A DNA stretch of 64,000 nt from Candidatus Omnitrophota bacterium (GCA_030649895.1 JAUSEX010000037.1:3815-67814); one strand, 5' to 3'; numbered from the stretch's first letter, positions 6,001-60,711 are shown. The notes: generated by a model from the letters alone, not told the origin. Made by a program: numbers and translations.

Positions 6001-9000
6001 AGCAAAAAGAAACAGTAATGGAAGGCGTTAAGTTCTTATCTGGAAATTTTAAAAGCAATGATCCTGCGTTTGAGCAGTTTAGGGTTAATCCATTGGCAGT
6101 GATGCAGCAAATCGCTACTGGTAAAGTAAAAGGAGTTGAATCCGTTGTTGTAAAAGCTATAAGAGAACTGGTTGGAGAGCCGCGAGAAAATTTACCTCTG
6201 TGGTCAAAAACATGGGATAGAATAACAAGGCGGACTTCTCCGCAAATTAATTTTGCTCGTGTTGAGATTGCGGTAAATGATATTGCCAATGCGCTTGGTG
6301 TTGATAGAGATATAGTTGAAACCAATTTATTAAAACTCATGGGATATACATTGTCTCAGATAGGCACTATACGTGAGCAGCATAGTTTATTACTTGAATT
6401 AGGAGGCGAAGAATTTGGCAAGACTCTCGCAAATACTCTTCCTATAGCAGATATTTTGATAAAATTAGGCTCTAAATCAATATCACAAAGAGTTGAGTTT
6501 ATTAATAGCCTGGTTATGGGTGAAAAAACAGCGAAGCAATATGGCGTAACCAAAGGATCGGACGCTGTATTGAAGGTTTCTTCGGCAATACTAGGTATCT
6601 TGAAAGCGAAATCTGGCAAGTTAACATGGAGAGATTTATGGACTGACAAAGAAATAGAAAGCTCCGGCCTGGATAAAAGACAGGTTGCTATTATTATGGG
6701 TATTAATTATTCTATTCTCGAAAATTTGCCTGCTGATTTAGTTGATTTATATGATATTAATATATTGGCAGATTCTGAAATGATGGGCAAGGTTGTGGGC
6801 GTATATAAAATATTTGAAAAAATTGACCCTGAATTTGCAAAATGGTTAGTTGAGCCAGTAAAGACAGCGTTGCCTTCAGGGCTTGCCGAGTTGCAGCGAG
6901 ATGATCCGGAGATGTTTGCTCTGATAGAAGCATTACAAAGGAACCAGGGGGCGCCAAGCAGGGTATTCGGAATTTCCAATCTTATAGGCGAGTCAGATTC
7001 GGAGGAGCTTAAAAAAGTCCTTACGAGATTGTTAATACCAGGGGTTTCTAAAGAAGCGCCTAAAGAAGAAAAAGAAAATATTTATAGCCGTAGATTGGAT
7101 ATTTTGACTTCATCTATAGGAGAAGAAGGATTGGAATCTGAATATTCCCCAGCTGCCAGGATAGAGATGGCTATTGGAGTTTACGATTTTTTATCTTCTG
7201 TAGGAGTCAATGCAAGAGGGGTATCATGGGAAGATGTGAAGAAATTAAAAAGCTTTGCTGATATGGCGCAAGCGATTGAATCAGCTAGTTATAGAGAAAT
7301 AATTAAAGCAATAAAGCAAGGAATGCCGCAGGAAGAGAAATTAGAATATCTATTTAAAGTTGCCAAGGCAATAGAAAATAAAGATGAAATATTGTTAAAA
7401 AGTTTGGGAGTATTAAATGATGAAGATTGGCTAAGCCAATTCGATCCTGCTGATCAGGGGTTGCTTAGGAGATTGCTTGCAGGGGAAAGCTCAATAGAAG
7501 AAATTAGAGAAGAGGTTGTTGAGAGCGGTAGATTGGTTGGAACAGGCGCTCATGCAATGGCAATACGTTTGTTAAATGAAAAAGGTATTCTAAAATTGCT
7601 GGATTCGTCTGATCCTGAGCTTATTGAACGCGCAAGCCAAAGATATCAGGATGCCAAGAAATTAATACCTGAGTTGGTTATTCCTTATGTAATAAGAACA
7701 GATAAGGGCGAAGATATTACTATTATAATTCAGGAAAAAGTTGTGACGTCTAGATATGAGTTGGATAGTTTAATCGAGGCAAAAGACATGGAAGGCGCAA
7801 AAACATATGTCAGGAAATTAGTAGAGCTGGTTTATAAGCTGGCGGAAAAAGGTATTGTTTTTGACAGCGCTGTTGTTAATTCAGGCCTTGATATATTGGC
7901 TAATACAGCTGTAGATGCTAACGGCAATGTTAAAGTGCTTGATGTGGCAAATTTAAATCTTAAACCCAACAAAGAAGAAGACATAAGAGCTGGTGTGAAT
8001 AAAGTGCTTGAACGACTGCAGACTGATATTGGTGACGGCCTATTGAAGCAAGAATTTGCTATGGAACGCCAAACGCAGGATGCAATATATGACATTAATA
8101 AAGAAAGAGGCGAAAAACAAGTTGAATTGGCAAAAAATATTGCAAGTAAATGGCTTGAGGAGGCGCTTGCAGATATTACAAGAGGCGGCCCGAAAAAAAT
8201 AGATAGGCTTTTACATGATCCTGCTAGAATTCCTCCTAATATATACTTTGCATTTACCTATATAAAACAGTCTTTCCTAGATTTCCAAACACTTTTATTA
8301 AAACCAGAAGTAGAATATGCTTCGATAATCAATCTCTTTATAGAAAGGGCATTTACCCATGCGGAAGATATAGTCTCTTCAGGTATTAATGGCGTATACG
8401 AGGAAAAAATGGGAGTTTTTATAGATGAAATCCGCAAAGATCCTGCAAAATTAAAGATGCTTGCTGATTTATTAGGCCGCCGTTCAAGTGATATGGCTGG
8501 CATAGATAATTTTACTATCACAAGGGCTATCGGAGGCGTTTCTGCTGTAAACTGTGGTGTCCAGGCACTGCAGGTTGTTCTGGAACAGTGGGCGCCAGGC
8601 GCGATAAAGGGGTTAACACCAGAAGAATTAAGGAAGAAATTGGCAGGTGAGATAACGGATGAAGTTATAGCTATAATTGAAGCTGGATTTGGAGATCCTG
8701 AATCCGAATCAGCAAAGCTCTCCAGAGAGATAGTAATGAATCTGATGGAAGGCAAAATCGGGCACGATATAATTATTGCAGTTGCAGAAAAAGAATACGG
8801 AGTGAAAAACGTAAATCCAGTCACTATAGAAATTGACGAAGCAGCGCTTGAAAAATCGCTTGAAGGTATAGGCACAAGTTTTATCCTCTGGGTGCCTGGC
8901 CACTTTATGCCTATTGTTGGGTATAGAGGCGGGTTATTCGTTACAAAGACACTGAAAGGCGAAGATGTAGGCATAGATGTTAGAGATATACTTAATAAAT

Positions 9001-12000
9001 ATATACATGAAGCTGGCCAAGCCAGCGGTGGGACGATAACTATAATCATACCAGGCAACGACACAAAAGATAATAAGAGGTATTATGGCGCAACGCCGGA
9101 TTTATATTCACTCTTTAAGCCTGAACCTATAACAAGCGATGCAGGCGTAACATATTTTGGCAGCTTAGCTTCTTCAGGAAAAGCTATTTCTTCTGCAGGA
9201 GCAGGGCAGGAAAAAGCTGCTGAGCAAAAGGAGAGAGGGTTTGTAAGGAATTTAAGAAAAATCTTTGAGAAACACAGAAAATTAACCGCAGCTCTTATTA
9301 TAGGAGCGACAATAGCAGCAGGGATTGTGGCGCTGCCGGTTATTGTACCGATAATTTTACCTGCGATGGTAACTGCATTGCCAATCTTATTGGGAGGGGG
9401 AGCGGTTATTATGCTTTTTGCAGCTCCCGGTATATTTAAATTTGTAAGAAGCCTGAGGACAAGGGCGCCACCGCAGTTTACCCCGATTACCAGGAAGTCA
9501 GATGAAGCGCAGATAAAATCCCGCATTGAGGAGCAATTTGGAGTTGACCTAAAAGATATTAATTCCGATGACTGGAAAGAAATTCTCGTCCAGGCAGTTC
9601 TTGCCGATTACAGGGCATACCAACTTGGAAGCCATAAAGAGTATCACAAAAACAAAACTGTCAATTATTTCATAGAATATCCTATGATGATTGTTAATGT
9701 TCTGACCTTGCGCGTACTTGACCAGTTTTTCTTCAAACATTGGAGACAGCCGTTTAGTTATTTCCTGTCGCGTAGAGGCGATAAGAAGCATTATCTTGGT
9801 GAGCAGGCGCAGGCAGTCATGGAAGCGCTCATCAGCCAGCAAATAGCTAAAAAATCAGGCGACGTAGCTCAAAAGAATACCTTGGAATCGGTGCATAGCA
9901 AGCTTAAGACAGAGCTAGTAAGCGTTATTCCTACTTCCATAGTTGCCAATAGAGTTGCCGGCTTACTTGAGAAAAGATTAGCGATATCAAGCCTTGAAGA
10001 GCGTTCAGCGCTAAATATCGCAGGTTCAATATTAACTGGAGTAGTGTTAGGAGCTGTCAGCCTGGCCAATCAGCGATTGCGATTCGCAATTTTCAGCGCT
10101 ATTTCTTCCGGAATTCTCTTTGGGTTACTGGGGCCGGCAGGGTTATTCGGCAGCCTGGTAGGGGCAGGGTTCTTAACAGGTACGTTAGTTACTATAGGTA
10201 TGCCGCTTGGCCTGGCTGCGCTGAGTATCAGCCCGCTTATTCTATTGAGCCCGTTATTACTATTGGCATTCTTGAATTTCCCTGTCAGCTATGCAAAACA
10301 CCGCAGGGCAAATCCCGATGAAAATATTGTTAAATCGCTTTTGATTGTCTTAATGTCTCCTAAGTATTGGGCTGCAAACATTATGTCTGTGCCGATGTTG
10401 ATTATGGTAGGGCCGGAGATAGAGGGGACTATAAGGTACACCGAACATATTCCTTTAGTGGGTGATTTTGCCGCATGGATGGAAAAAGCTATATACGGGG
10501 CGCATGATAAGGAAACAGGGCAGCCTACTGTACCAGTGGGGCAGAAGCTTCTTGAGAGACTCCCAGGCGGTTCGCAGCTCAGCGATTTTACTTATCGTAT
10601 CTTTTCTCTGGGGCGAGGCGGTGATCTGCAAAGCGCGCATATGAAAAGTCAGATCGCCGCTATTGTTGCTACGGCTAAGATAGACGATAAGAGTTTCAAA
10701 GAAGAGCCAGCCGCTTTAAAGGAAGCGCCTGTAAGCGATGCTAAAGGATCTGAACAGGGAGTTACGGTTGAAGGGTATCAGCTCTTAGTTGATGGTAAAC
10801 CCTATCAGATGAAGGGGGTAACGTGGAGACCTTCCGAGGATAATAATTTCAGCCAGTGGTATCAGAAAGATATTACCCTGATGAAGGAGATGGGAGTAAA
10901 TACAGTAAGAACATACAGGCCTATAGATGACCAGAAGGTGCTTGATTATCTTGCCATGAACGGCATAAAGGTAATTATAGGATTTGACTACGGTAAAGAT
11001 ATACAAACAGGCGCTTATAAGGATTATATTAATAAATTTAAAGGACACCCCGCGATTCTATTGTGGGAATTTGGGAATGAATATAATTATCATTCAGACT
11101 GGTTCGGAGGAGATATTAATAATTGGTATAACACGTTAGAGAAGACTGCTCAGGAGGTCCATAAAATAGATAAAAGTCATCCTGTAGCCACTGCTCATGG
11201 CGAAATACCTGATAAGAATGCCTTAGTTAAAGTTCCCTCTGTAGATATATGGGGCATGAATGTCTATCGTTCGGATAGTCCGCAGGCCATATTTGATGAA
11301 TGGGGAGCCAGATCTAATAAACCTATGTATTTCTCGGAGGCTGGCGCGGATTCTATTGACAATAGGGTAGACAAAGAAGTACAAAGCGTTCAGGCCAATG
11401 CTAATGTGCATATCTGGTCGCAGGTAAATGCAGCAAGCAGTAAACTTCATCCAAATAACGTCTCAGCCGGAGCCGTATTTATGGAGTTTAATGACGAGCC
11501 GTGGAAGCCTAAAGGTTTTCAACACGATGGAGTTTATCCTGATAATTTTGCTAATGAACAGCATTTTGGTTTTGTAGATAAGGATCGTAACCCCAAAGAA
11601 GCCTTTTCTAAAATGAAGGATGGATGGAGCGAATCACCTTTTTCTGAAGCGCTGACAGGAGCTAAATCTATAACTAAAATATACGAAGGCGACAAGCATA
11701 CTAAGACAGCTTACAACATGGGTGCTGTAAATATTCTTGAAGAAAAGCTTCTTTTATCTCCAGAGGCCCAAATATTTCCGGAGGTCCAAAAAATTCTGGT
11801 AAGCGATATTCGGCAGGTTTTAAAAGTACCAGCTGATAAGAAAATCGAACTTAAAGATGTCAAGTTCGATAAGATTATAGAGGTGGATACGGTAACCGGC
11901 GCTAGAACCGTTAAATACGACTATGGGTTCCTGCCTGGCAAGCAAGACAAGACTATTATCAAGATATCCCAGGGGGCGCATGAAATTTTTGTGAGACGGG

Positions 12001-15000
12001 TAGCGGGCGCAATAGATAAAAACGAAAACTATCCTTATATGGAAAACGCAGGCTGGGATATATTGGACGAGAAAGGAAAGATAGTGCAGTATGATGCCGA
12101 ATCTCCGGAAGTATTGGAAAGATTGAAAAAGTTAGCCCAGAATAAGGATAGCAAATTACCTGATGAAGTTAAGAAAAGTATATTCAATGCGCAGGTAGCA
12201 GTTCGCGTCTATAAGCTTGTAGAAGGCGGTAGATTTGTAGAGGATAGGGTGAGCGCGATTGAAGCGAATAGGGAAGCTATAAGATTCTATGCCAAGCCGG
12301 AAACAGTAACATCAGGCGGCAGGACATTTGAAGTTTCTGGAAAGGCAGTTGTGGATACGTATGAGGCCATAAAAGCCATTTATTACTATGATAGTAGCTA
12401 TCAACTTATGACCAGTAAAGGTGAGGCGTTAACCAAAGACAATGCCGGAGACGTTATAGGCTGGGTCAGAGTAACCGGTGATAAACTTTTAATGAGTGAT
12501 GGAGCAGAATATAGCGTAATAGAAGAGCTTAAACCTGATAAAACTACTATGGTAAGACGCTTTGCTTCTGACGATAAAGGCAATGAACGGGCCAAGATAT
12601 CCAATCTTCCTGAAGGAGGGTATCTTATTCAGGTGGTTGATGAAAACGAAGTCATCGGAGACGATAAGGCTGACATGTTGACATATAACGGCACTAAAGA
12701 AGGTGGCTTGTATAAATTTAGCACAGATAAGCCTTATCTTACATCGCTTCTGAAGGATAGTTTTGAAATTAAAGTTGATGAAAAAGGCATTGCTACGGAA
12801 GAGGGCGTAAATAGCGTTCTTTCAGATTTTACCTTTGCAAATGAATCACTAAAGAATGCAGCGAGAGATGCTCTTAATAAAGGATTAAACGAGATAATAA
12901 ACAGTTTAGGGTTAAAAGATGGAAAGGTTCACGTAATGCATATAGTAAAGGAAGAGGTGCGCATAGCTAATGATGGAGTTAAATTTAATTATAGAGTCGA
13001 AGAAGACCCTGCCGCGAAGATTGTTGCCTATGTATCAAGTGATATGAAAGAAAAGGCAGACGTTATTATTAACACTAAGTGGGAAGGAGAAAATTCCTTA
13101 GAAGGGTATCAGTTCTCTCCGATAGGGCAGATTTTTAAATTGAAGACAGAAGGCGATATATTATCTCCTGATGATGTATTAAAAGATCTGGATATACAGT
13201 TGCGCGAACAACTGGAACAAAAAGGGATTAAGGTAAAAGAGCTGTCTTTATCCAAACTTAATCAGTATCTGGTGGTCCATAAAGACGGCAAAGATAAAGA
13301 TTATGAGGTGCTCTTCCATACGCGATATATTATGCGCGACGACCCGCTGAAAAGAGACTATGCAAGGTACGATAGAGGCGCTTTAAGGTTTATCAAGTTT
13401 GCCCATAATAAAACTGATATACCGTTTGGAGTTCCTGACGGGGAAGTAATTGTGGCTCCTGAAATACAAAGGATAATCAGGGAGACAGAATATTTCGAAC
13501 ACAGGCCGGGAGATAATGAGTATATATATAAAGTTATATTTGAATATAGAAACGGACAGGAGTATAAAAATGAGCCGATATTTATAGGGTACGATTACAA
13601 GACAGCTGTTGTATGGGAGCATTATGTTAATGAAGAATGGAAGCTTTATAGCAGGGATGGCCTGCCGTTTGAGGTTTCAAGGGTGGACGGCGCCAAAGAA
13701 TATCTCTACAGCGTTTTTGCTATTACAGTATTTGAAGACGGAGGCAATAGTTATATTATGGCTTCTGAAAATATAAAATCTTCTACGCCTGTTACTCCTC
13801 CTACTACGAGGATCAGCAGGGACAATACACTGTGGCGCATAATCGAAGGGAGGGGTATTGACAGTTTCATACATCAGGATGTCTACGCTACAAGCATGAC
13901 TGATAAGTTCTTAAATTCCGCTCCAGGAAGATTGGTCAAGCGTATTATGGGCAGCGATGATTTAGAAAAACTTATGGATAAGATCGAAAAACAAGGGATG
14001 GAAATTGACATAGATTATAGAAGATGTTTTGACAAATTAGAAGAAGGAGTATTTGTCGATAAAACAAGGTATCTTATGAACCAGGCGTGGATCGGAGCGA
14101 TAGGGTTTTTGGCGCTATTAGTATCTTTGCCTATCTTTAGAAGATTTTTAGGGTCAAAAGGCATAAGATGGATTTTTAGAAAAACAGGTAGAAGAATAGT
14201 GAATGTGAATGCTACAGAAGCAGATAGGCTTAGAGAAGTTATTGGTACTCCGGGCCTTGCTGATAAGCTTATAGTTCTGCGCGAACTTTCAGGCCCTATT
14301 ATTATAAATAGTAATCTGCCTGCGGCGGATAAAGGTGATTTTTTGCGTGATTATCTGTCGGTCTCTGGTTTTGATCCAGAAGAAGTCAATGAAATAGTTG
14401 GTTTATTTAATAGCGGAAAAATTACAATGGAAGATAAAGATGTGGATCCGAAATCTCTCCCGCGTGCTCCTCCTATTGATACTCTTCAGCACCTGGAAGA
14501 AGCTATTGCTAAGAAAAATTATCCCGCGGCAATTGTTATCAAGGCATTACTTGAAAAAAAGTTAATCACCCAGGACGACTTAGAAGGTACCTTTAGGAAA
14601 GAGGGGGCTTTAAGAGAAGGGGCTTTAAAGTGGGATTTGCTTGTAAAGGTATTGCTTAATAAGGCTCAGGATAAGGTCTTAGGAGAAATAAAGGAAGGGG
14701 ATTTTACAAATGTAGATAAACTTCTTCCTACGCCGGAAGCAAAAGTATTACAGTATGTGGTAAAGAACGATTTAATTGCCAAACCTGACTTAATAGAACT
14801 TTCCCATAAAGATAGTGGATATAGCGGTTTTACTGGTTTTGCCATTGGGCTCATAAAAGAGAAGTTTATTCAGCCGGTATTTGATGATGTGTTTAGCAGG
14901 ACCTTTGGAGCTGAAATAACAGAAGGGATCAAAGATATAACACTCGAGACCGTATTTGCAGAAATCCATCCTTTTATCTTCAAAGACCCTTCTTTACTCA

Positions 15001-18000
15001 AACAGATAATAGATACAAAAGATGCAGAATATAATCCTAATCCTATGAATAAGGCAATTGAAACTACCACGTTAAAAGAATTTATACTTTTAAAATTCAT
15101 ACAGCTGAATCCGTCACAGACAAACAATCATTCAATAGGGCAATTCTCAGCTATATGGCCATTTGCTCTATATGTAGTAAGAGAAGCTAAAAATGCGCTA
15201 GATAACGAAAGGAGCCCGGAGGAAATACTTTCTATAATCACTGCTTATAAGGATGTATTTATACCTCTTGTATCGCAAGAGGTGCTTAAAAAATATAAAA
15301 AGCAGATTACTGAACGTGACCCATGGGAAGAAATTGAAGGCGCTGAAAAAATTTTATTGGATGTGTTCTCTGATCTGGACTTCTATGATTTATTTGAGCG
15401 TTTATCTAAAAAAGAAACAAATCTTTTAGATCGCTTATCTGTAAATGGAACAAGTTTTGCTTTAGTTGAAGATTTAAGAAATGCCATAACAAACGGGAGA
15501 ATTAGTCAAGACGATTTGGCTAAGGAGCTTAAAAAGCTCACTTTAGATTTATCAATGGAGGATGCTCCTGAAGCAGTGCAGGCAGACGAAGCTACTGAGA
15601 AAGGTTTAATTTTTGGTTGGTTTAAATTAGGATTAGTTCATTTATATGTCAGCAGGATATTTAAGCCATTATTCAGTTCAAAATTCTGGGGTATTGATAG
15701 CCGAGCGAAAAAGATCGGTTTTACAGTAATGCTTTTTGGCTTAACAGGCCTTGGTATAGTTATAATGCCTCATTTTCTAGCTCTCGGGGCGGTATTAATA
15801 TCTTTTGGGGTTATGCTCTCTCCTATTATATGGGGCAAGTCATCAAGCCCGAAAGAGAAAATCTTCTGGGCATCAATATTTGGCGCAACTTCAATATACA
15901 CCTTTGGCATAATGACGCACTTTTTATTCTGGAAGCTTAGCCTGGTGGCCCTTACTTTTGGCACTGTGGCTACTGGAGGATTGCTTGTCTTGGTATTTAT
16001 ACCAACTCTTATTTCCTTCTATCATCTTGCTGTTAGCTTAAGGAGCTATATAGGGTTACATAAGGAACTTTGGAGCGGCACTGCAAGGTCTTTGACAGGG
16101 TGGCGGTCAATAGCGCCTTGGCCCACAAGATGGAATAGTTTATTCAAGAAATGGTACGTGGAATTCAAGGATGTTGAAAGAGATCATATGGCGCTTACCT
16201 CTAATGGCGAGTCAATAACAGAGTATTTGGAGCGGCTCGTAAATCTTCTACATGAAAGATATCTATTCTCGGATGACGAGAAGAGCGACTGGATCAAAGC
16301 ATTGAATAGTGAAGGAAAAGAAGGAAAGTTCAGAAAACCTCGCTCACCCAAAGCATTTGAGATCCTTTATAATGCGTTCTTTGCTATAAGCCAGAAAAAG
16401 CCTGCTCCTGATGTTTATTCCTTGCTGCAGCCTACTTCTACGCATGTCCAGGCAGCAGGAGAATTATTTACACATACGTTTGAAAATAGCGCTTTATTGG
16501 GAACTTTCGACGATCACCCGCTGTTAGATGAATTAATATACAGCTTGAAACAAAGAATTGGACTTAACGACGAAGATTCGGTAAAAAATAAAAAATGGGG
16601 TGATATTAATAGTTTAGGAAAAATGCTTAGTATTGAAAAGTTAGAGAGAAGGCTAGCTGACTGCGAAAACTTGAATGAAGAAGAAAAGCAAATTATCAGA
16701 GAGCGTATTCTAGACTTTTCAGAAAAGCATAATTGGACAAGTATGAAGCGTTCGCTTTTGGGTTACATGGCAAGAACCCAAAAGCCAGAGTGGGAAAATC
16801 TAATGGATAGGATAAAACAACAGATAATAAAAGACAAAGACAAAGAAACATTTCTTGAGGAATTAAGAGGGATAACGGAAAAATACGATATATATACTTT
16901 ATTGTTCGTAACAAACTATGGATTAACGCAGGAAGAAAGGCAATTTATTATAGAGTCTATGATGAAATGGCTCAATGAACTGCGTCCTACTGATGCGGCT
17001 GTTATTGAATCTATGGCATTGGATTATGTGGAATATCATTTATCAATATCTTATCAGTCAGGCGATTTAGAATACCATGGAGCAGCAAGAGAAATCTCTA
17101 TGAAATACCCGTCTCTTAAAGAGGCCTATGAAGTAATAAGTTCTAAAGCTGAAGGAGATAGAGACAATACAGAAAAAATCTTTTTTAGCGGATACAAAAA
17201 GTATAAATTTCTTGTCAGTATCAAGCTTAGACAGCTATTCCAGGACCAGACTGTATGGGCAGCTGATGCTGATTTGGCAAAGAATAGAATACCGCCTGTA
17301 GATAAGTTTGTAAAAAGTTTAAAAAATATACAAAAGGATACTGCGACTTCTGATATTATTAGAGAACTTTTAAGTGGCGGAGATATGAACCCTCTTCTAA
17401 AGTATAACATTACTGATTTAGATGATTGGGCAGAGAAATTTATCAGCTGGAGAAGAGCAAACTACGATAATATTGTCGCTCTGATTAATGCTTATTCTGC
17501 GCTTGCAGATGATTGGAATAAGATTTCTTCTCAATTAGCAACTATGGTTCATCAGAGTAGCAGTTCCGGCGTAAAATACGCTTTTTATAAACAAGAAGAT
17601 AATTTTATTCCCAAACTTAAGAATCCAGGCATAGGGAATGAGCTGTGGTTATATTATGGGAAATCAGTGAACTTTGATGCTCATGTAAGGAATTATCCGG
17701 GCCAGAATGTCTGGAGGTTTAACTGGGCGGCTCTGCAGGGAAGAAATCCCAATATAGCAGTAGTTAATACAATGATGAAGATATGGGCGAGCAGCAACAG
17801 CGCCTTTCCTGCAACTAATATCTATTCCATAGCACAGGAGGTCTTTACCTCGGATGTCCAGAGGGCAAGAAGAGGCATGCTGACTTTTTATGGCAAGGCC
17901 TGTGTGGTGCCGCAGGCAGTCAGCGTAGTTACTCCTCCTGGAGAAGATTCTGCGGCATTTCTTTTGCTTCAGAGGACAAATCCTTCATATACATCTACCC

Positions 18001-21000
18001 AGATAGACTGGTTTGGCTTTGAATGGGGAAGGATGTCATTCGCAGGCTCTATCATAGGGACAGAGATGAGGTATGCTTATAATGTTACGAGATTTTTGAT
18101 GGATAGGGGCCAGTTTGAATTGTTTTATAATAAAGATTTAGGATTCGACAAAAAATTATCTCATTTATTCCTATGGGCTCACTATTTTGTAGTGCCTTTC
18201 TCCCTAGGATTACTAGTGCTTCTTCCTATTCTTGCGCCATTTAGCGCATTTGCTTTTTTGACGCCTGTTATCTTTTTCGTAGCCGCGAGCTTTCTCCTTA
18301 TGGAAGCAATAAACACTAATAATTTTGTAAGGCACTGGAGGCAGACAGGCAATCTATGGGTTGCTGCTGTTTATACTATAAAAGATATTGTCCGAGCTTT
18401 TCCATTATATGTCGTGCTGTTGCCTTTCTTCTTGAGAGGGGTATGGTCTGCTTCCAAAGAGATATTTTCTTTTATAAGGACACAAAAGGAAGCGCGCCTT
18501 GCAATGGAAAATAAAAAAGATTGGTATAGCGATAAAATGCTATTTAAACTCTGGAATAAAAGCGGATTTCCTTTCAGCGGCGTTGTGGGCATATGGGGGC
18601 TTATCTCTTGGGTGGCAGCATTATTTACCATGACCCCCTGGGGGCCTATTATTTTACTGCCTTATCTCATGGCGTCTATTGCTTTCTTAACAGGCATGTA
18701 TGTATTTACAACGTCTGCTGATAGTAAAGGGAATTTAAAAGGCATGAGCTTGTCGGCTTTATTCCGGATGCTGCCCTATTCAATCGGAAAGACTATTTAT
18801 TATCTCTGGTTATTTGGTAAAGATAGGATAGGAAAATTTAGAAATAAGCCGTCTGCGCCAGCTGCGCCAACAGGTACCATAGGCAGTGAAGGTTCGGAAA
18901 AATATATACCAGGTATCAGGACCAGCAAACTAAGCGAAGACGCCAGAGTTTTAGTGCAGGCGAAGATTGGCGAAATAGAATCAAGGGTCAAAAATGCTTC
19001 TAACTTGAATATTGACGAGAGAAGTAAAATTAGCGACGCTATTTTAAAACTCAGGGAATATTTTGCCAGAGGCGATATTGTATCTTTCACTGCATTCGTT
19101 AATGGCCCTGAAGATTATTTACTTGCCTTTGCTACCTCTGCCCAGATTGTAATTATGAGCGATTTCTTTAATCGTCCGGAACTTCATACATATCTCGACG
19201 AAGTTCTTTTCCATGAAGCTTATGTAGCAGCGCACGGAGAGAAAGACTATGAAGCCCACCGCGCGATATACTTAGGTATCCAGAGAAAGATATTCGGCGA
19301 AGAAAACCCATTAAAAGGAATATTAAGAGAGATAATAAATAGCAAAAATCAAGCCAACGAATCAAGCGCTGCTGTGGGTTTAGCAGGGAAGAAAGGTTCA
19401 GCTGCAAGATCTTTCAGAGCTTTGCTTGACAGGTTATTTGGCAGAGAAGAGCGGTTAGGCCGCTTGAAGGTGTTAAGAGAGGTAGCATCTGAGCTTAACG
19501 ATGAAACTATAGCAGAGATGGTATATACGTTTGCAACAGATTTTCTGGGAGACGAAAGTAAGGTCCTGATAGGCGATACGCCAGGGGATCCGGTCATGCA
19601 GGTTAAAATTATTCTCGGAGCAAACGGAGAGATAGAGAAAAAGACACTTCAGGTTCATAAGATGTTCCTGGATAGGGTTATAAGCAAGGAAGGGACGCCT
19701 GAATATGATACCTATAAGAAGATACTTAAGTTTCTGTTGATTAAAGAAGGCGAACATTACAAAACTTCTTCCAGTTATGACCTTATTAAGATCGCGCATC
19801 TTAAGAGACAATACGAGCAAAATCCAAAAGATATAGAAGCTGCAAAGAGACTGGCTGCAATACAGATGTATTACGAAGCGGATAAATACGGGATGCTTTA
19901 TGACAATCTTCTTAGCCAGGGCATCACCGCTGAAGGCCTCAAGGAAATAGCCAATCAAGAGAATGACGAGTTCCTGAGAGATGTCCTGTCAGGCCTTGCT
20001 GGCTTAATGACGAATTACGAAAAATCCGGATACTTAGCGATAGCTAAAGACCTTGCCCAGGGCACAGGATACATTGCGGAATCAGTACGAGCAGCTCTAA
20101 CTGATGAAAGATTCAGCAATAATCTTGCGGAGTTGACTGATAAGTCTGGATTAGAAGATTATTATAGGTATGTAGAAACAGGGGTCAAGGAAATGCCTTA
20201 CAAGAAAGGACTTGTTTTTGGCTCTTCTAATCTTTTAGTCCAAACCCCTAAGAGGTTGCTTGAGGATATATATGCTCAGATAGAGGAAGGGCAGATAAAA
20301 AATGATAACTTGGAAAAACTCAAAGAAGGATATGCGGTTATTATATGCAGATTAGCTGCAACTGACGTTAAAACTTTTGATCTCCTGGAAGAAGGGCTCA
20401 ATAGGCTGCTTGACTCAGAAATGGTAAGGCGAAAAGCGGAAAAAACAGTCAACGGCTCTACTATGGTGTTTGTTAATATCGTTGATAAAAACGCGAATGA
20501 ACTTTTAAAATTTTTACTAGCTGAACTGCGCAAAGCAGCGCCTGTGTATTCCGGGAAAATAGAGAAGCTTTATCAGAATCTTGCGGCCGGAGATTTACCG
20601 CGGGATTCGCAGGGAAACTTCAGAGCCTTTACTAAAGAGGAATTAACCGAAAGGTTAAAGGCCCGGGCAGAAGAGATTAAAAAGGCTCGTCACAGCTTGA
20701 AGGGATACAGGATAGATCAGGCAGTGAGCATGCTAATAGAGTTATTGGAAGGCAGTAAACTGAGCGAACGAGAGCTAAATGAGCTTTATCCGGATATTGC
20801 TAGCGCATTATATGGGGAATACGAAAAACTGCAGGGCGCTTTTATGTTATACCCACAGGTGGTAAAGGCTATTACGGAAAGATTTCCTGGAGCGCATAAG
20901 GTATTTATTGCCAGAGATGCCGGGGTATTTTACGAAGCCGCATATCTGTATAGTTTAATAAATGGAATAAAACTTGATTCATCTCTGGTTTATGCAGGCG

Positions 21001-24000
21001 GTGTTGACGTAGCAGGGATGGGGAATCTCTCTCACAGTATATATATCCTGCGCCAGCTAGTCGAGACAGCAAAAACGCGAGGGTATCCAGAAGAAGAAGT
21101 GGAGAAAATAGTGAAAAAAGCGATAGAAAATCGTTTGAATCCTGAAAGCAAGAATTTTGATAGGCTGTTCGCAGATGATACTGAAAGACTATTCCAGATA
21201 ATTAGAGAGTCCGGCATACTGGAACATGAAAACGAGGTTCTTATAGATACCTTTAGCTCAGGAGCCACCCCGTTATTTATTAAATACGCTATCGAACGCC
21301 TGAGGCAAGACAAGGTAAGCCCGAAGATATTCATACTAAAAAGTAAGTACGGATTTTTTGACAATCTAAAAAATGCGGGGTTTGACTGGGGCTTCATCAA
21401 TAAAGTTACCCAGGAATATAAAAAGACGCATCCTGTTATGCCAGGCCTTAAATTAGCCCAGCCTGAGGCGGAGTTATTTTCATATCTGCGCGCCATGATA
21501 ACTTATAACGCTATGGTAGAATACAAGAGCCGAGTTATTGCTGCTAGAGGCGGATTTATCCGCGAAGGTGATGCACGCTTTTTTTTTGGAACGAAAAAGA
21601 AAACGCTTACTCCTGCTAGCGGAACAGCTGCCAAAGGTAAGGCCTTGCTTCCTCCTCATGAGCATGGAAGCGTAAATAGAGCTATAGCGCAAGCGCGTTC
21701 AGAAAATCGCGGATATATTATACAAAGAAGCGGCACTAAACTCGCGAGGGGGTGGAAAGATGGAAAATACGCGGATAAAATTAAACTTAGAAAGGCGATT
21801 GAACTTTTAATGGTGGAGCATATTCGTGAATTAGGTAGAATAGTTTTACCAAGCGGTTTGGGCGAAATTATACTAGCTGAAGACCTCGGCGCCCTTAATA
21901 TTATTTTGATCCAGCCTCGCAATAAATCTCCAGGTTTGATGGTAGAAAGCAAGAATGCCTTCCATGTTGCGCACCCAGGGATATCCTATAATTCTATTTA
22001 TATTGATAGACTTACCTTTGACCAGCTTGATATTCGGGAACTGGCCGCCTTAATCCTTTACGAAATAATAGAATTAAAAACTAAGAATTTGTCTTTGGGG
22101 AAAAAACGAAATTGGAGACCAGAACTGGCAGAAGAAATCCATCGATTAGCCGAAGAATACGAACAAATTATCGTTGGGCCAAGTCAAACCGGGACCGGCA
22201 GCCTTCTGGATGATAAGGTCCAGCAAATTTTAGAGGATTCTTTTGTCTTTAGAATTCAAAATTTAATTGATCCTTATATGAGCGAATTAAAGCCGCTTCT
22301 TGATAAATATCATAGAATGGCTACGGAAATTAAAGAGGCTGAAGCAATAATAGCGGAAGAAGCCGAGAGAGTAAAGGCCTTGCTGAACGAATTATCCAGC
22401 CTTTCAAGAGATAGAATTAAATCACTGCATGAAGAATTGAAGAGTCTTATGGAAGCATATTCTGGAGAAAATGCTGCGAAAACAGAATCAGCCAGAAAGA
22501 TAATAGAAAAAAGAGAAATCAATAAAGTTATAGATAAGATCAATGTTTTTTCGAGGGTTCCAGAAAATCAGATTGAGTTAGCTGAAGCCGGAGATGTAGG
22601 AAGTTTAGACGAATTTTTAGAAAGAAGCGATGCCGATGAATATATAAAACGGGCTGAAGATAGCATTATTCATGGCGAGCATGTTGTAGAATTCTTCTTT
22701 GCGGGAGCAGCCACCCGCTTTATAGAAGACCTCAGGGCATCAGGCAGGACAATAGAAAAGAAAGACGAACCACAATACCGTATGTATGGACTGGATATCT
22801 GGGATTTTGCCGGCCCGGCCAGAAAAGATTCTTCAGACTTAGGTTTAGGAATGGCGCAAAGGCAGCTATTTGCGTATAGAACTTTCCTGAAAAACTTGGC
22901 CCTGAAAAAAGGATTACATCCCGATGAGGTTCTGAAGCGCCAACGCCTTATTTTGCATATAAATGAAGATGTCGAAGAGATGGTTTTGAAGGACTTTATG
23001 GATAATGTTTTCTATGGTTTTGATCCAGATAATATTTTCTTTATGGTGCAGGAAACTTTACACGGGTATTCCCTTAAAGACGGTAAAATAGTTTTTGCCG
23101 AAGATAGCCCAAAACTTCCTTTTGGACATGGTTACGCCACAGAGCAATTGAACGTACCAGGTGTCGCTTTTCACCTTAAGGTAAAAAATGGAATAATGCA
23201 CAGAGAATATCTTTCAGAAGCAGTTTTGACAGAACTGGAACTTAAAACCGCCGGTTATTATATCGATACTCATAGAGTTAATGATTTGACTAAATTTTTA
23301 GTTGATGAGGTAGTGGATGTAAGAAAACTCGCCTTTAAAATATTTCTTATTGAACAAGAAAATGACGTCATTATAGAGCTGGTAGAAAACCCTGGAAAAC
23401 AAAAAGGGGGTAATCTTATCAAGGATAAAAGAACCGGCAAATACTTTCTTATAGAGACTTCTAATACAGAAGGCTCAGACCGGTTAAAGGAATTGCTGAC
23501 CAAGGCAAGCGAAGACAGTGCGCCTTATAACGCCTTTAGAATTATGTATAGACGTAGAGGCTTAGAGGAACTGTTAAAGAAGAGATTCCCTTATAACCTG
23601 CGATTTAAAAATGGCTATTTCTACTTGGAAGCAGTTACAGGAGACATAACTCAATTGGAAGAGGCCAACGCAGCTGCCTTTAAAGAAAAAGGCGCGGTTA
23701 TCAAAGACTTCAAACGACTGGGAGATTTAGGAATTGCTATTCCTGTATTGACAAAGAGTGATAAGGACCTTGCTGATGTAGTCAACCAGACAAGACATAA
23801 ACAAAGTTTGGCTGGTAGAAAGTTAAAAGACGTAATATCGCGACTACTTAGGCAAGGCCTTCCTCATGATTTTATAGAAAGAGCTATTTTATCAATGCCG
23901 CTTGAACATACTTCATCGGATACCGTGTCTGTGGATAGGCTTGTGGCTCAGATTGTGGAATGGCGCACTTTGATGGATAATTGTCTCGCAGAAAAAGGAG

Positions 24001-27000
24001 AGATACGAGTAGCTATAAAAAATCCAAAAGATGTTTATTATAAAGATGTGCCCGAAGAAGAAATCCCCTCATCTATTGACTATACGGAACTTACGATCGT
24101 TTCTAGAGATAGGCCGGGATTGGTCAGAGATATAGAGACCGTAATTGCTGAATACGGGGGCAATTTAACACGGCCGGCATTTGGGGCGATGAATGATGAA
24201 GGAATGGCGCGGTTGATTTATGAAATTAACCATGCTGAACGAAAAAATGCTTTTAATAGTAGAGAAATAGAAGAATTACGAAAAGCACTTTTAAAAATAA
24301 AGGTCGGCTTGGCGCCTCTTTCTATTAAACCAGAGTATGGATTCGAGGGTTGGAGAAAGGTCGAAGGGGATGCGGATGCTTATGAAGGAAAATTAGTTAT
24401 TGATGGCAATGTCATGGATCTGAAAGTTGTAAAATCTGCAAGTTCTTTCGAATATTTTCTGGGGTATGAAGGGGGGCCTGCGGGGTATGCTAGGATTTTA
24501 TTTAACAACAAAAAGCTTAAAGTCCATTATTTAGAACTTTCCCCTTCGTTTAGAAAGGCGATTGGCGATATTTCAGCAGCCAAAGTATTAATGAATATTA
24601 TGATCAGAGATTTATTCTTTATCGGAAGCCAGGATTTATCAGGGCTAATAGTCCAGGTAGTCATGAATGAAGATTCATCTACGCCTAAAGTAAATAATCT
24701 AATCGGAGGATTCGGGATAACCGAGTTTAACAGAGAAAAAGTAATGTCTATAATAATGGATGAAAAATCTAAAATTAGTATCGAAGAGACTAAGGCTCCT
24801 CATGAAGGCGTGCCGTATTTCAGGGTAGTATTGGAAGGAAAGCTGCCGCTAAAGATTTTTCTTAAAGCACGTTTAGAATATTCGTACAAAGACAAAAGGA
24901 CTTGGATTATTAGCAGGAAGATTTACGAACAAATGGAATCAGATGCAAGGTATAAACTAGGACAGGCTCCTCTGCAAGTCAAAGAACAGGCCCGGCTTAA
25001 AGGAGAATTAGCAAGAAGGCTCCAAGAAGACGAGGTTTTTGTCGGAGGAGTTGATTTTTATATGGATCCTGACAAAGTAGAGTGGCTTGAAGAGCATACT
25101 GCATCGTTGCCAGAGAATCCTTGGTTAGTAATTGATGACCTTGGTTCTGCTCATGCTCCAAGAGAGCAAAATGCGCCATCTCTTTTAGCCAATCTTTTCA
25201 CCGGAAAATGGAGTAAGTTTAATTGGGCGACAAGGGCTGTTTTTTCACTTGCTATAGTGCCGCATGAGGTTGGACATCTTTTTATGGCAAAAATAACCAA
25301 AACCCCTTTATTAAGAAAACTCTATATAGAAGATTTATCCAGTAAGATGCCTATAGCCGAAAGAGCCTCTCCAATAGTTCATTTAGCAGGATTGTTTGTA
25401 AATGCCTCTGTCGCTATTGCTTCAGCCTTTACTTTGCATTTCTTTGGCCACGCAGTTATAGATTTTACAAATCCTTTAGCTGGAATCCTCTCTTACGTCT
25501 TTCTTGCCAATAGCATTCTTTTTGCCTTAGAAATAATATTAGATGCTACCACTAAGCTTAGAGGAGATGTAACTAACGCAATTTTTGGACGCTCAGGATT
25601 TGCTAGTCAAATTAATGTACAGAGAGCTAAAAATATATTTTTCACATTCAAGGAATATATGAACGAGGCCTTGTATAACCCGGATTGGGGGTATTATGCA
25701 AGCGGCCGCGTAAAAATAGGGACTGTCAGAAAGGGGAGCGATTTTATTACTTACCCTTTGAAGCTATCTCCGCTATTTGGCGGAATGATTGCTGAACAGG
25801 CATTTAAGATGTGGGAGGGGATGGTCAGGGCAGGCACAATTACAGAAAATGAACAGTTTACTATTTTAGAGTTTGGCGGCGGAGACGGAACGCTGGCTTA
25901 TGATATTCTTTCACGCGCAAGCCAGAAGGCCCTGGATAATCCTGACTGGGCAAAGTTTTACAGAGCCCTACTTTATACTATAGGTGACCGCTCGCCTCCC
26001 TTGATTGAAATCCAAAAAAAGAAAAATGCGCGGTTTAATGGTAAATTTAATACGGTTTTAGTTGATGCGCTGAATCCTCTCGAGGGAGGCGTTTTCAAGC
26101 CCTCCTCTATAAAAGGCCTGATTCTTTCCAATGAATTGCTGGACGTTTCCGGCCACCAGAAACTTATCGTTTATCCGGACGGAGATATCAAGGTAACGCT
26201 ATCTATCCCAAAAATATCTTTAGCCTTGCTAGGCAATTTACCTAAAGACAAACAGAATGAGTTAGTTAAAAGAAATGAAGAGTTAATCTCGGAATTTAAG
26301 CTCCCTTTAACCGACGGGATATATCTTTCCAGGGATGATTTCTTGGCCCTGAAGGCTTATCTTAGGGATCTGGGCCCTGAGCAGGAGAATCTGTTTAATC
26401 AGGAAATAAGATTTATAGAAATTTATATTGACCCTATATATGTTCCGGAGGTCCTTAGCTATATTCAGGAGAATAAAGAAAGCATAGATGGATTTGTAGC
26501 TGATAATGAAAAGCCATTCGCTGTTTATATTAATCCTGATGGGGCGGGATACATCCAGGGCGCCGGAGAGATCCTGGATAAAGGCTACATCCTGACCATA
26601 GATTATGGCGGGTTATCGGATTATATTCTTGACCCTCAATATGAGCACCTTCTTATAATAAAAAATGGCTCAAGGGACGCTGATCCCTATAGCCTTCCTG
26701 GCCAACGAGATATCTCCGCTGAACAAAATTTTACTGATCTGGCAGCCGCTGGCCAAAAGATAGGGCTCAATACAGTATTTTACGGTAACCAGGCCCATCT
26801 TGAAGAAGGCGTGACTCCTTTAACGAGCCAATCTCTTTTGGAGGAGCTGGCAAAAAGGTTTCAGGGCCAGGAGCCTGGCTTATCTTCAGAGGAGGCTATG
26901 AAAAAAGCCAGGAGAGAAGTTGATGAATTCAGGCTTAGCGGAATCATTAATGATCCAGGTAGGAGCCCGTATAAGATGCTCATTCAACAGAAACCAGGGA

Positions 27001-30000
27001 CTGATAGCAAATATGTGTTTCCCGCTAGCTTGCTTCAATATACCGGGGAGAATAAAAGTAATGCTGGTCAGTCAATGCTCAAAATATTAGCTCCTTTTAT
27101 CGCAATAGTATTTATTGCCTGGTTCTTTATCAGCATTGTATTAGCGGCGCATACTGCGAATGCAGCTGGCTCTGGCAGCGCGGGGGCGCAGAACCGTGTT
27201 ATCCATCAACAGGAGGATGCGCGGATGATCCAGACTCCCGAGGTTGACATTCGTCCTGACGGTTTCTATGTTGAGAATAGAAGGATATTTATTGGGGCGG
27301 GAGTAAATTTCAGGATTTTGGATTATGACAACAATTTTGGGGCATATAGGCGGGTAACTGATTATCCTGAACAAGTAAAGGCTGAGCTGGCTGCTATACG
27401 CAGTATATCTCAGAGAGGGACTGTTGTTATCCGCGTGGGGTTATTGGATTCAGGGGTTAATTACTTTAAAGGCGAAGGTAATTATGCAAATATTCGGGAT
27501 GATGTGATTGCTTTCCTGCAATGGGCAAAGGATAACAATGTTATGGTAGAGTTTGTTCTAGCTGATTACCTGTTGGCTGCTCGTCATTCTGATGCCTTGA
27601 CCCATGATATTACCAGACAGGATATCACCCAAAGATTCTTAGGGGATTTGGTAAGGGATATCAAAGCTGATCCTAAGGCATTTTTAAGCCTCTGGGGATT
27701 TGATTTATACAATGAACCGGAATGGTCTGTCAGCCAAAGCTTTGGCGGTGGATGGGAGTATGTTACAGGAGAAAGGCCTGAACAGCCGATACCAATTGTG
27801 GATATGAACGCCTATTTTAATGAGGCTTACGAAACTATAAAGTCTATTGCTCCTGAAAAGTTCGTCACTATCGGCGTTTCAGCAAAGCATTTTAGCGTCA
27901 TAGGCGCAATAAAGGATAGGTTAGATTATTTTGCCCTGCATTACTATGCTTGGATGGGGCCTTTAGAAAGCTATGTCAGTCAGCTCCCGGAGAATAAACC
28001 TTGGCTATTAGAGGAATATCCCAGCAGAGACGAAGGTATGAATATCGAACCCGCTGTTTACTTGGATAATCTCTTAAATCTATGGAATACAGGTAAGCCT
28101 GCTTCAGGCGGATTAATCTGGATGTGGAGGCCAATCATAGGGCAGGCGGATGAAAATACCTCTGATGAAATGGTCGCTAAGCTTAGAGATTGGACTGCGC
28201 AACATCAAAATGAATTGGAAGGTAAATTTGGCCTGTTTCTTCCTCTAGTGTTCGGTTTTGCTTTAAAGCGTAAAGGAAACTTCTCGGAAACAGGAGAAGA
28301 TTCCTCGGAATTAGTTGATTGGAAAGCAGAATGCGATAGCCTTCCTATTCAGGCATATGATTCGGATTATTTTGTCGCTGCCAAGATATGGTCTTATAAA
28401 GGACTCAAGGTATTTTTTATTCCAGACCACAAATTCGAACACACCTTATTAAACCTGATGCGAAAGGCCTTAGGTTTTAAGTTTAGAGAGATACTTTCAG
28501 ATGCGCACGATGACGCAAGCTATCCGACTGAATATAAACCTTTGGATCCCGGAGAAGCCAGCGAGGGAGAAATTATTGATCGTTCCAATGCCTTAACTTC
28601 TGCGAATTGGCGTATGGCTCTTATAAAAGACGGGACCATCGCGGATTCTTATGACTTGTCGGTAATTAAGGCAGATGAGGGCGAAGGCCGGATACTTAAA
28701 CTGCGTTTAGCGCAATTTCCGGCAGTTACGCCTTCGAAAACAGATGAGACTATTTTAATTATTGAGAATGATTCTTTTGGTATATTTGACAGTAAAGAAC
28801 TTGAAAGAGCAATTAGTGAGTATGTCGACGCGCTTTTTAAACTTAATATTGAATTTGACGATGTTATTTTTGTAGACGCAGGAGATAAACTGTCTAACTG
28901 GATGATCGGCCCGCCAAGCACGCGTTATTATAGAGAACATATCTTGCGATTTTTATTGGCTAAACTTGCTGAGAAATACGAAGGCGGCGTAGATTATTCT
29001 ACGCAAAGAAGAAATGATCCCGCAAAAGAGATTAAAGGCGCAGAGGGAGATAGAATGGCAAATGGGGGTGTTCCCCGATCTGAGATGCAATCCGAGGCAT
29101 CAAAAGAAGAGCGGCAGCGTGATATCGATACGCAATTTATAGGCTTATTATACAGGGCTGCGTTTAATAGGCTGCCTGACATAAGGCATGATTTCGCTAG
29201 CGTGGTACGGGAAATGATAAGGGCAATGGCGGCTTACCGCGAATACTATCTTCTTTCTTCCACTCCCGTCAGAAGCCCGGATTCTATTACGCTGAAACTG
29301 CTCAAGGAAAGTATCGGCCAGGATGGAAAATTCCTTAATGTTAATTCTCATGCAGTTATGCAGCTGCGCATGGTAAGAGAGGTTTTTTCAGCAGATGCAA
29401 TGGTAGCAGCAATTGGTTATGATGACAAGAATGCCGAACTTCCGGTTATCGATCGCGTGTTATCATTAAAAACCGATGACTTGATTCGATATATTGAGAA
29501 GAATAAAAATAATATTGGTAAATCAAGGTTCAAAATATTACCTCTAGCGATACTATTTGGCGGATTTGCAGAAATGTTTTGGGGTTTTCCCTCTATTGCT
29601 CAGTCAGCGGGCTTAGAGGAGGCAGTAAATCAGAGAGCGTTCTTTCAGTCATTATTTTCCGAAACAACCTTGATAACCTTGGGGGCAATACTATTTACAT
29701 CTGTATCAATTGTAGGAGTAACTTTATCTTTATATAGGGTTTTTAAGCATAACTCCAAAAATGTAAGAGAACCTTCTCCTGCTCCTGACAAAGATCTAGC
29801 AAATGCTTCTGTTTGGGCTTTAGAAAGGATTTTGCATATTATAGATGAATTAAGCCGTGCAGGGGAAGAAGGAATCAGGCAGCTATTAGAGGAGATGAAA
29901 AAGAATTCTGAGAGCGTAGGCGTTGGAACAAGCCATGTAGAAGTTGCTGAAGAAGCTGATAGATCAAAAAATCAAGGACTAGGCGTTACGTTATACTCTG

Positions 30001-42666: not shown

Positions 42667-42679
42667 AAAAAGCAAAGGA

Positions 42680-42711
42680 CTAGGGACGTTCTATTCGGGG
42701 ACACCCCATAC
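42680..42711 (+). repeat. REP-like element copy upstream of CDS 42725
   Basis: ctagggacgttctattcggggacaccccatac. Confidence 0.6.
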
Positions 42712-42885
42712 AAAGAGAGGTTTTATGTTGAATATTAAAAAAATATTATTAATCAGGGCAATAAGCTTATTGCTTTCAATAAGCGTCGCGCTTCCAGGCG
42801 CTGCCTATTCTCTGCCTGAAAACCGCTCTAATGCCTTAAGAGCTCCATTAAATACGCTGGAACTTAAGGAGCGGCAGGAAGAAGC
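42680..42885 (+). repeat. leader module B copy 2
   Basis: see 38923-39125. Confidence 0.8.
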
Positions 42886-54305: not shown

Positions 54306-54385
54306 AGAACTGTTTCTTGTTTCGTTCCTTTCAGTGGCAAGATTCGGAATTAAATTTGCAAAGCAAATTCAAAAGGATGAAATGC

Positions 54386-56592: not shown

Positions 56593-56604
56593 TATGGGAA
56601 AATT

Positions 56605-59798: not shown

Positions 59799-59888
59799 GA
59801 AGGAGGTGTATTTTATAGAAATAAAAATAAATGTTAATCGCGCGTAGATAGCGCGGGGAAATAAAGCAGCAGAACAAAGGAGGGAAAG

Positions 59889-60605: not shown

Positions 60606-60655
60606 TGGCGTAAATACTTAGCAGAAAAACAAGGTATTCTTAGAGCGAAGCCGAA

Positions 60656-60682
60656 GGTCGAGTCGAGAGGCTCTCGACTCGA
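60656..60682. repeat. perfect 13-nt inverted repeat (gtcgagtcgagag / ctctcgactcgac) in intergenic region, flanked by cgaag / tcgctcg tandem motifs; possible terminator or regulatory hairpin
   Basis: Read directly. No U-tract. Confidence 0.4.
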
Positions 60683-60711
60683 CTCGCTCGCTCGAAGAAT
60701 ATTAATGAATT

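Follow-up and report, generated by a model that had tools for sequence, protein, structure and literature searches.

Giant proteins in which many membrane helices are combined with dissimilar enzyme domains have already been described in tiny, host-dependent Omnitrophota. Giant open reading frames (ORFs) were found in 77 of 116 Velamenicoccia genomes, and the Velamenicoccus archaeovorus protein, of 39,678 amino acids (aa), contains 42 transmembrane (TM) helices (Seymour 2023, PMC10066038). The 39,678-aa protein of V. archaeovorus LiM is also the type protein of the Archaeovorins (length threshold >30,000 aa), in which glycoside hydrolase (GH), glycosyltransferase (GT), methyltransferase, peptidase and NUDIX domains are found together with a C39 peptidase domain near the N-terminus and, in most but not all of these proteins, a divergent SecA DEAD domain; GT, HEAT and NUDIX domains are frequent, and transporters with solute-binding proteins (SBPs) and glycosidases were reported downstream of the Omnitrophota giant genes (West-Roberts 2023, 10.1101/2023.11.21.568195). 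Among 916 proteins of at least 10,000 aa (10 kAA), 94% were membrane-targeted, Omnitrophota proteins of this size had a mean of 22 TM helices, and a "multi-enzyme metabolic cluster" class was distinguished, with 21-50 distinct Pfams in multi-enzyme giants of at least 80 kAA; GH2-type flanks and mobile elements were noted near long Omnitrophota genes (Nielsen & Lui 2026, 10.64898/2026.06.07.730766). In this work, we analyzed 64,000 nucleotides (nt) of a Candidatus Omnitrophota bacterium (GCA_030649895.1, JAUSEX010000037.1:3815-67814; hereafter the window), in which one giant ORF had drawn attention in a prediction made from the sequence alone (hereafter the original prediction). Coordinates are given from the first letter of the window, and features lie on the plus strand unless stated otherwise.

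The giant ORF (3..31868) is a single uninterrupted frame starting at nt 3, open at the left edge of the window and free of in-frame stops up to the stop codon at 31866-31868, and it encodes at least 10,621 aa; the region 8478-28140, to which the original prediction had referred, is an inner slice of it. The protein is a further example of the known giant-protein class and its architecture is not new. We consider it probable that the stretch of 10,621 aa or more seen in the window is the C-terminal part of a giant Omnitrophota protein that is anchored in the membrane, combines many enzymes and is of the Archaeovorin or "multi-enzyme metabolic cluster" type, acting in the manner outlined below. 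In common with Archaeovorins, it is encoded by one very long ORF (at least 10,000 aa) and has numerous TM helices, large unannotated stretches, nearest homologs in Omnitrophota, a mixture of GH, methyltransferase, candidate C39-type peptidase and sugar-metabolism domains of low sequence similarity and, in the window too, an SBP transporter and glycosidases encoded downstream. The differences are that the visible 10,621 aa hold no SecA DEAD domain, divergent or other, and no GT5/GT1, HEAT, TPR or NUDIX domain, although a SecA domain could lie in the missing N-terminal part, that its UDPGP-fold and MidA modules are not named in the main text of West-Roberts 2023, and that the visible length stands below the >30,000-aa threshold, with the 5' end of the gene outside the window. 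With the class of Nielsen & Lui it shares the length of at least 10 kAA, diverse enzyme domains of which none dominates, a sugar-metabolism theme, the density of helices (roughly 20 per 10.6 kAA vs. the published mean of 22) and the flanking GH2-type glycosidases and IS200-type transposase; unlike members of at least 80 kAA with their 21-50 Pfams, it shows two Pfam domains above threshold, and no type II/IV secretion or pilus genes were found in the 32 kb downstream of it. The original prediction had spoken of an architecture of no characterised system, which holds insofar as none of these proteins has been characterised biochemically, but the architecture as such had already been described for Omnitrophota giants.

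Within this one frame there are a MidA-type methyltransferase, a divergent UDPGP-fold module followed by an ACT-like piece, and two glycosidase modules of clan GH-A, both of which retain their catalytic glutamates. The two Pfam domains exceeding their cut-offs in the visible protein are Methyltransf_28 and Glyco_hydro_2_C (GH2_C). The former covers positions 1-246 of the 249-position profile (5.7e-23, 82.1 bits vs. the cut-off of 23.3; core at 25785-26778) in an S-adenosyl methionine (SAM) methyltransferase cassette located at 25626..27026, which is 63% identical to residues 371-837 of a homolog, P0016. This match over the whole profile, together with that to PDB entry 4f3n (COG1565; 2e-9), bears out the earlier assignment of a MidA/NDUFAF7-like enzyme.

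The first glycosidase module (10761..11633), with a predicted (beta/alpha)8 fold, reaches 27.2 bits with GH2_C (cut-off 21), with a weak GH72 match as well. Among PDB entries, the GH158 enzyme 9oro matches best (2e-10), and GH2 beta-glucuronidases come next. When the module is aligned with 7kgz, the acid/base E3693 (nt 11079; FGNEY) and the nucleophile E3779 (nt 11337; FSEAG) pair with the NE and SEYG glutamates. The predicted clan GH-A glycosidase with GNE and SEAG catalytic positions was thus recovered, the GH2_C score being above cut-off and both glutamates aligned in PDB relatives. Because GH158, GH2 and GH72 match about equally, the module cannot be assigned to a family or a substrate; it is 27% identical to the free glycosidases encoded downstream, at 57450 and 60712.

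The second, GH5-like glycosidase cassette (27168..28268) gives 19.2-19.4 bits with Pfam Cellulase, below the cut-off of 23.5 and thus short of formal Pfam GH5 membership. The cassette is 64% identical to a part of an otherwise unrelated giant ORF in the metagenome relative L019, and a profile of these two sequences (A3) retrieved three matches only from PDB, all of them GH5 endo-beta-1,4-mannanases (3vup, 5.5e-6; 5y6t, 1e-3; 2c0h, 0.5), the alignment with 3vup spanning 264 positions. E9238 (nt 27714; NEP) and E9338 (nt 28014; LLEEY) stand opposite the NEPE and GEF motifs of the mannanases, which supports a putative GH5-like enzyme. The NEP-motif glycosidase proposed earlier is therefore backed by the mannanase matches and the two kept glutamates, but not by a Pfam score above threshold. 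Both modules resemble their counterparts (the GH158 and GH2 enzymes of clan GH-A and the GH5 mannanases 3vup, 5y6t and 2c0h, respectively) in full-length alignment and in both catalytic glutamates, and differ from the enzymes compared in being embedded in a giant membrane protein.

The UDP-sugar-pyrophosphorylase-fold cassette (M3; 21609..25160, about 1,180 aa) consists of a helical lead-in, a UDPGP-fold domain (22380-23882), an ACT-like piece (24090-24245) and an unassigned tail. The Pfam model of the eukaryote-type UDPGP family (PF01704; UAP1/AGX1, UGP, USP) fails to detect M3, with no match at E<=1 in any of 14 family members. A profile of the same 14 members found UDP-N-acetylglucosamine pyrophosphorylases in all of the top eight matches, at E-values of 0.008-0.3. 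The AlphaFold model of M3 built on the family alignment has a mean predicted local distance difference test (pLDDT) score of 90.4, and the first 50 PDB matches of this model in Foldseek were all UAP/UGP/USP enzymes (best 3e-14, about 490 columns), so that in the model M3 adopts their three-domain fold. For this reason, and in agreement with the family profile, the assignment of this region as UDP-sugar-pyrophosphorylase-like was right. The accompanying ACT-like region was recognised by three ACT-family matches, but all of them are sub-threshold (3e-4 to 6e-3).

In M3, the Gly-rich loop reads F-x-F-A-G-A-A-T-R, as opposed to G-G-x-G-T in the eukaryote-type enzymes. The canonical Pfam UDPGP domain adjoins an M3-like domain in L002 (~7150-7960) and P0013, and because the two co-occur in the same proteins, M3 represents a subfamily separate from UDPGP. 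Other partners of M3-like domains are PGM/PMM, hexokinase, ROK kinase, epimerase, uridine kinase and cytidylate kinase, the last two standing next to an M3-like domain in L007 (~11450-12720). Such enzymes perform the steps that make sugar-1-phosphates and UTP and then convert UDP-sugars. Two M3-like copies each were found in P0002, P0003 and the L016 locus. The motifs invariant in the family are all kept in both window copies, i.e., in the giant protein and in the ORF at 42626, and these motifs and the domain co-occurrence point to a sugar-1-phosphate uridylyltransferase as the predicted activity.

The second window copy is a stand-alone paralog of the M3 cassette (42626..46426, 1,266 aa) with a signal-peptide-like N-terminus. 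Its residues 115-1253 are 52.8% identical to aa 7203-8386 of the giant protein and the gene ends 13 aa past the homology, which means that the whole UDPGP-fold/ACT cassette is present a second time, 15 kb downstream, as a gene of its own. In L017 the M3-like domain forms a stand-alone ORF of 513 aa.

Relatives were collected by a word-indexed protein search (16 matches) and as genome loci found with the M3 profile (17). Among the 13 word-indexed matches with a source name, 12 are named as Omnitrophota/Omnitrophica and one as Endomicrobia; 11 of the 17 genome loci carry the Omnitrophota label, and so do all close homologs (51-63% identical: P0001/L002 and P0016). The word-indexed search with nt 24900-28400 gave one match. 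Homology to these relatives is always local, cassette by cassette. Only aa 2511-3067 are shared with P0017, where a complete SecA module follows directly; aa 4539-6304 and 7208-8393 are collinear with L002, a single-cell genome in which aa 6304-7208 are replaced by a stretch with the canonical UDPGP domain; aa 5959-6265 recur in L015. Only aa 8542-9008 are shared with P0016, there between two other methyltransferase modules, and only aa 9056-9422 with L019, within an ORF of at least 5,749 aa. The open frames that hold homologous cassettes can be as short as 513 aa, and the longest has at least 7,152 aa.

The cassette borders lie next to hydrophobic segments: the first cassette ends at aa 3067, before TM residues 3094-3145, and the M3 cassette at aa 8386, before TM residues 8410-8513, which are followed by the methyltransferase cassette (8542-9008), TM residues 9028-9046 and the GH5-like cassette (from 9056). 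Hence the modules are discrete cassettes that recur in a different order in other giant and mid-sized Omnitrophota proteins, with their borders at membrane segments. This arrangement is consistent with a gene that grew as genes encoding anchored or secreted proteins were fused, and the idea of a membrane-threaded chain of unlike enzyme modules gained support, as the borders defined by homologs abut the membrane segments.

TM segments were called with a Kyte-Doolittle (KD) hydropathy scan and from charge-free runs, against shuffled controls, and sidedness was read from the numbers of flanking Lys/Arg (K/R) residues according to the positive-inside rule. Along the giant protein there are about 20 hydrophobic helices in at least eight clusters, i.e., about one per 450-500 aa. 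Helices with mean hydropathy of at least 2.0 number 10 (shuffled mean 3.4, maximum 10), and charge-free runs of at least 18 residues number 25 (shuffled mean 10.9, maximum 19), several of them being 41-71 residues long; both classes are 2-3 times more numerous than in the shuffled expectation. The segments comprise a hairpin at 9282..9437 (a 52-aa charge-free run with two helices of KD 2.56 and 2.16, K/R-rich on both outer flanks), a cluster of three to four Gly-rich helices at 10005..10295 (charge-free runs of 23 and 71 aa), a cluster of about four helices at 15714..16040, called from hydropathy and K/R flanks, and one of four to five at 18156..18719, homologous to the stretch shared with L015. 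There are also single helices at 14070..14138 (six K/R in the C-terminal flank), 27084..27140 (strong, KD 2.76) and 29664..29735 (four K/R in the C-terminal flank). The KD scan therefore found hydrophobic clusters at the sites named in the original prediction and, additionally, the single helices at nt 14070 and 27084. The long K/E-rich helical stretches said to lie between the clusters were not recovered, a single 60-aa window reaching 33% K+E, which is inside the shuffle range.

The single helix at 27084..27140 resembles an internal signal peptide, with a Lys, a hydrophobic core and the ending TANA|AG. Its counterpart in L019 (~9900-10010) ends with the lipobox-like ISIGC|GSKSPTPT and is followed by a Pro/Thr/Ser linker. 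According to the K/R flanks, most clusters would be in-out-in hairpins, after which the chain is back on the side from which it came, and the side is flipped only by the single helices at aa 4694, 9028 and 9890, the GH5-like module lying between the last two. The proposal that the enzymes alternate between the two sides of a membrane is thus partly plausible, with three single helices that flip the chain but mostly same-side hairpins elsewhere. By what is a crude inference, the GH5-like and probably the GH-A module would tentatively be placed outside, and the UDP-sugar and SAM modules inside.

Two further modules were considered as possible peptidases. The cassette shared with P0017 (7533..9203) holds a candidate C39_2-like (papain-fold) module (8478-8960) that carries Cys2851 (nt 8553) and His2967 (nt 8901). 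The window sequence of this module (nt 8478-8960) has no match in Pfam or PDB, phmmer and a two-sequence profile retrieved only unrelated matches from PDB, the word-indexed homolog search with nt 8103-11702 gave nothing, and the single-sequence AlphaFold2 model is unusable (pLDDT 36). An exhaustive search among 1.84 billion representatives found a single homolog, P0017 (5,059 aa; 55% identical in this module, 33% by BLASTP over 580 columns of the cassette, and 4e-32 by phmmer for the core). When scanned alone, P0017 matches Peptidase_C39_2 (6.7e-5) with 23.9 bits vs. the cut-off of 24, and Cys2851, one of only 10 Cys residues of the giant protein, and then His2967 fall within blocks identical in both sequences. 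By transitivity through P0017, the papain-like Cys peptidase proposed for this region is therefore a plausible candidate, with the kept Cys and His and a homolog close to the cut-off on one side and a window copy that matches nothing on the other.

The second is a TM cluster (25230..25541) with the motif HEVGH (25263-25277), a doubtful intramembrane zinc-peptidase-like segment. The motif does lie inside a hydrophobic segment, as had been predicted, and 0.16 HExxH motifs are expected by chance in the giant protein. A metallopeptidase identity was not accepted: the matches are weak (Zn_peptidase_2, 0.01, 15.8 bits; Peptidase_M50, 0.04, 13.7 bits vs. the cut-off of 27.2), and the only homolog, L007, reads EExxH, with the first His replaced by Glu. 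No canonical second motif (NxxPxxxLDG-type) was seen in the segment, and with the M50 score below cut-off and the first His not kept in L007, an M50/S2P-like site-2 protease was rejected.

On these data, we suggest that the gene may have grown by end-to-end fusion of genes encoding secreted or anchored enzymes, whose leader peptides would have become the internal junction helices. The glycosidase modules would face outward and the UTP- and SAM-dependent modules the cytoplasm. The giant protein, in concert with the neighbouring free glycosidases and the importer of the ATP-binding cassette (ABC) type for sugars, could cut external glycans, possibly on the surface of a host or prey, and the released sugars might be fed into nucleotide-sugar metabolism at the membrane. 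Several points weigh against this account. The export-type leader of the free M3 paralog fits poorly with a cytoplasmic M3, the topology was read from KD helices and K/R counts only, and the side of the GH-A module is uncertain because the Gly-rich cluster at 10005-10295 can be read with different numbers of helices. For about 80% of the visible chain, neither whole-length scans nor scans of 750-aa tiles gave a credible match to Pfam or NCBIfam, and Pfam scans of the visible 10,621 aa gave none of the SecA-DEAD, glycosyltransferase, HEAT and NUDIX domains. What is visible is the C-terminal part of at least 10,621 aa, the N-terminal part lying beyond the window, and the placement in Omnitrophota was taken from the labels of homologs and not from a marker gene.

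The cassettes are complete autonomous proteins elsewhere, as in the ORF at 42626, which ends 13 aa past the homology, and in the 513-aa ORF of L017, and such units would also be expected if the giant chain were a polyprotein, i.e., a precursor cut into separate enzymes by signal peptidase at leader-like junctions or by its own C39-like or HExxH modules, and having no scaffold function. The junction before the GH5-like module indeed resembles a cleavable leader (TANA|AG here, the lipobox-like ISIGC|GS in L019), a C39_2-like candidate module is present, and the same possibility was raised for the C39 and S8 domains of other giants (West-Roberts 2023, 10.1101/2023.11.21.568195). However, most junctions are multi-helix clusters and not single leaders, HExxH is not kept in the only homolog, and the papain-like assignment is indirect, so that we regard a polyprotein as unlikely, if the strongest of the competitors. 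Rather improbable, in our opinion, is a metabolic scaffold confined to the cytoplasmic face, in which nearly all of the chain would be cytoplasmic and the hairpins would be mere anchors, so that enzymes of sugar and nucleotide-sugar metabolism are concentrated along the inner membrane face and have no role at the cell surface. It would account for the in-out-in course of most clusters with K/R on both outer flanks, for the need of the UDPGP-fold and MidA modules for UTP and SAM, and for the 46% of long Omnitrophota proteins that are "TM-only" and were read as membrane-anchored with cytoplasmic domains (Nielsen & Lui 2026, 10.64898/2026.06.07.730766). It does not account for the three charge-asymmetric single helices that flip the chain and bracket the GH5-like module, nor for the fact that GH5 and GH2/GH158-type enzymes and the neighbouring leader-bearing free glycosidases normally act outside the cytoplasm.

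There is hardly any room for an artefact, be it a mis-assembled or mis-called frame joining ordinary genes or a decaying pseudogene. Independent support for the 3' neighbourhood comes from one 7.2-kb Logan contig only, but 31.8 kb without a stop at 40% G+C is beyond chance, the catalytic residues are intact, and homologous cassettes occur in L002, L005, L007, L014 and L019, which are independent single-cell or metagenome assemblies, within open frames whose minimum lengths range from 4,499 to 7,152 aa. The G+C content of about 40% and a uniformly positive GC skew run along the whole giant gene, and none of the three antisense ORFs of at least 150 aa inside it (8258-9064, 19473-19958 and 21032-21496) has a Pfam match, which is why they were taken as spurious.

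The membrane-anchored multi-enzyme protein outlined above, with its nucleotide-sugar modules on the cytoplasmic side, has a bolder variant, to which we give little credence: the giant gene would have arisen from separate genes, each encoding an exported enzyme, and the leaders of these enzymes would persist as membrane junctions, with whole nucleotide-sugar enzymes placed or released outside the cytoplasm. If so, the UDPGP-fold cassette would act on host-derived sugars and nucleotides at the zone of contact with the host, as would its paralog and the epimerase-kinase fusion encoded next to that paralog, both of which bear leaders. The locus would then represent an extracellular nucleotide-sugar pathway, as opposed to a mere coat that degrades cell walls.

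Few predicted polypeptides are as long as the giant proteins of Omnitrophota, and the locus described here is a well-dissected addition to them, in which cassettes exchanged between giant and free-standing genes have their borders at membrane segments, and in which a recurrent, Pfam-invisible UDPGP-fold family travels with sugar-kinase, mutase, epimerase and uridine-nucleotide enzymes. The new points are modest: the UDPGP-fold subfamily with its partners, the TM-junction borders, the leader-like junction, the free paralog, a possible CheD-like module and the depletion of Cys. The expressible units (aa 7203-8386, the free paralog and the two glycosidase modules) bear on the idea of "prey-glycan harvesting".

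The possible seventh module, which the original prediction had not listed, is located near the C-terminus (~30345-30780) and may be CheD- or N-terminal-amidase-like; the assignment is coherent, albeit weak. Its Cys-His core (30375..30482) has CheD (2f9z_C) as the top PDB match (0.0021, over 36 residues), with Cys10136 (nt 30408) and His10153 (nt 30459) at positions equivalent to what we take to be the catalytic Cys and His of CheD. The match to Pfam N_Asn_amidohyd (0.009) is below cut-off, and there is no CheD match in Pfam. The depletion of Cys in the giant protein is extreme, with 10 Cys among 10,621 residues (0.09%), whereas Cys makes up 0.72% of the residues in the remaining 16 ORFs. A tiled Pfam scan of 7,300 unannotated aa returned only chance-level matches (Dak2, DUF7309 and similar), an NCBIfam scan of aa 1-9500 in three overlapping chunks had no match, and self-BLAST of the giant protein revealed no internal repeats.

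Downstream of the giant gene lie, in this order, five leader-bearing genes, CstA, a FIST/histidine-kinase/GGDEF set on the minus strand, and the SBP, permease and glycosidase genes; no type II/IV secretion or pilus genes were found in these 32 kb. The five consecutive genes (31986-46426) start with a signal-peptide-like segment, followed 5-15 residues on by the motif LR[VAT]P[LM] (nt 32124, 34076, 35980, 39073 and 42836), which was sought in the giant protein and is absent from it. ORFs 33965 and 35887 share 91% identity in their N-termini, and ORFs 38944 and 42626 share 80%; the motif may serve these genes as a common signal for sorting or docking. Two of the five genes encode nucleotide-sugar-type enzymes, among which the 1,240-aa fusion at 38944-42666 combines, behind its leader-like N-terminus, an NAD-dependent epimerase/dehydratase (1e-58), a weak GT2-like stretch and an APH-type phosphotransferase (3e-19). 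Between the first and the second of the leader-bearing genes, an IS200-type Y1 transposase is encoded (33306-33896, 5.9e-15).

The minus-strand set (49630-53274) is a cyclic di-GMP signalling set, in which a FIST sensor protein is encoded together with a GAF histidine kinase and a GGDEF-domain response regulator. It is followed at 54317..61935 by genes that, according to Pfam, encode SBP_bac_8, two BPD_transp_1 ABC permeases and two GH-A glycosidases (GH2_C/GH72-like). The 238-aa ORF between the two glycosidases (59889-60605) has no Pfam match, and both free glycosidases start with leader-like hydrophobic N-termini. The last ORF (61916-64000) runs off the window on the right after at least 695 aa; a hydrophobic segment lies at its N-terminus, and it matches TPR weakly.

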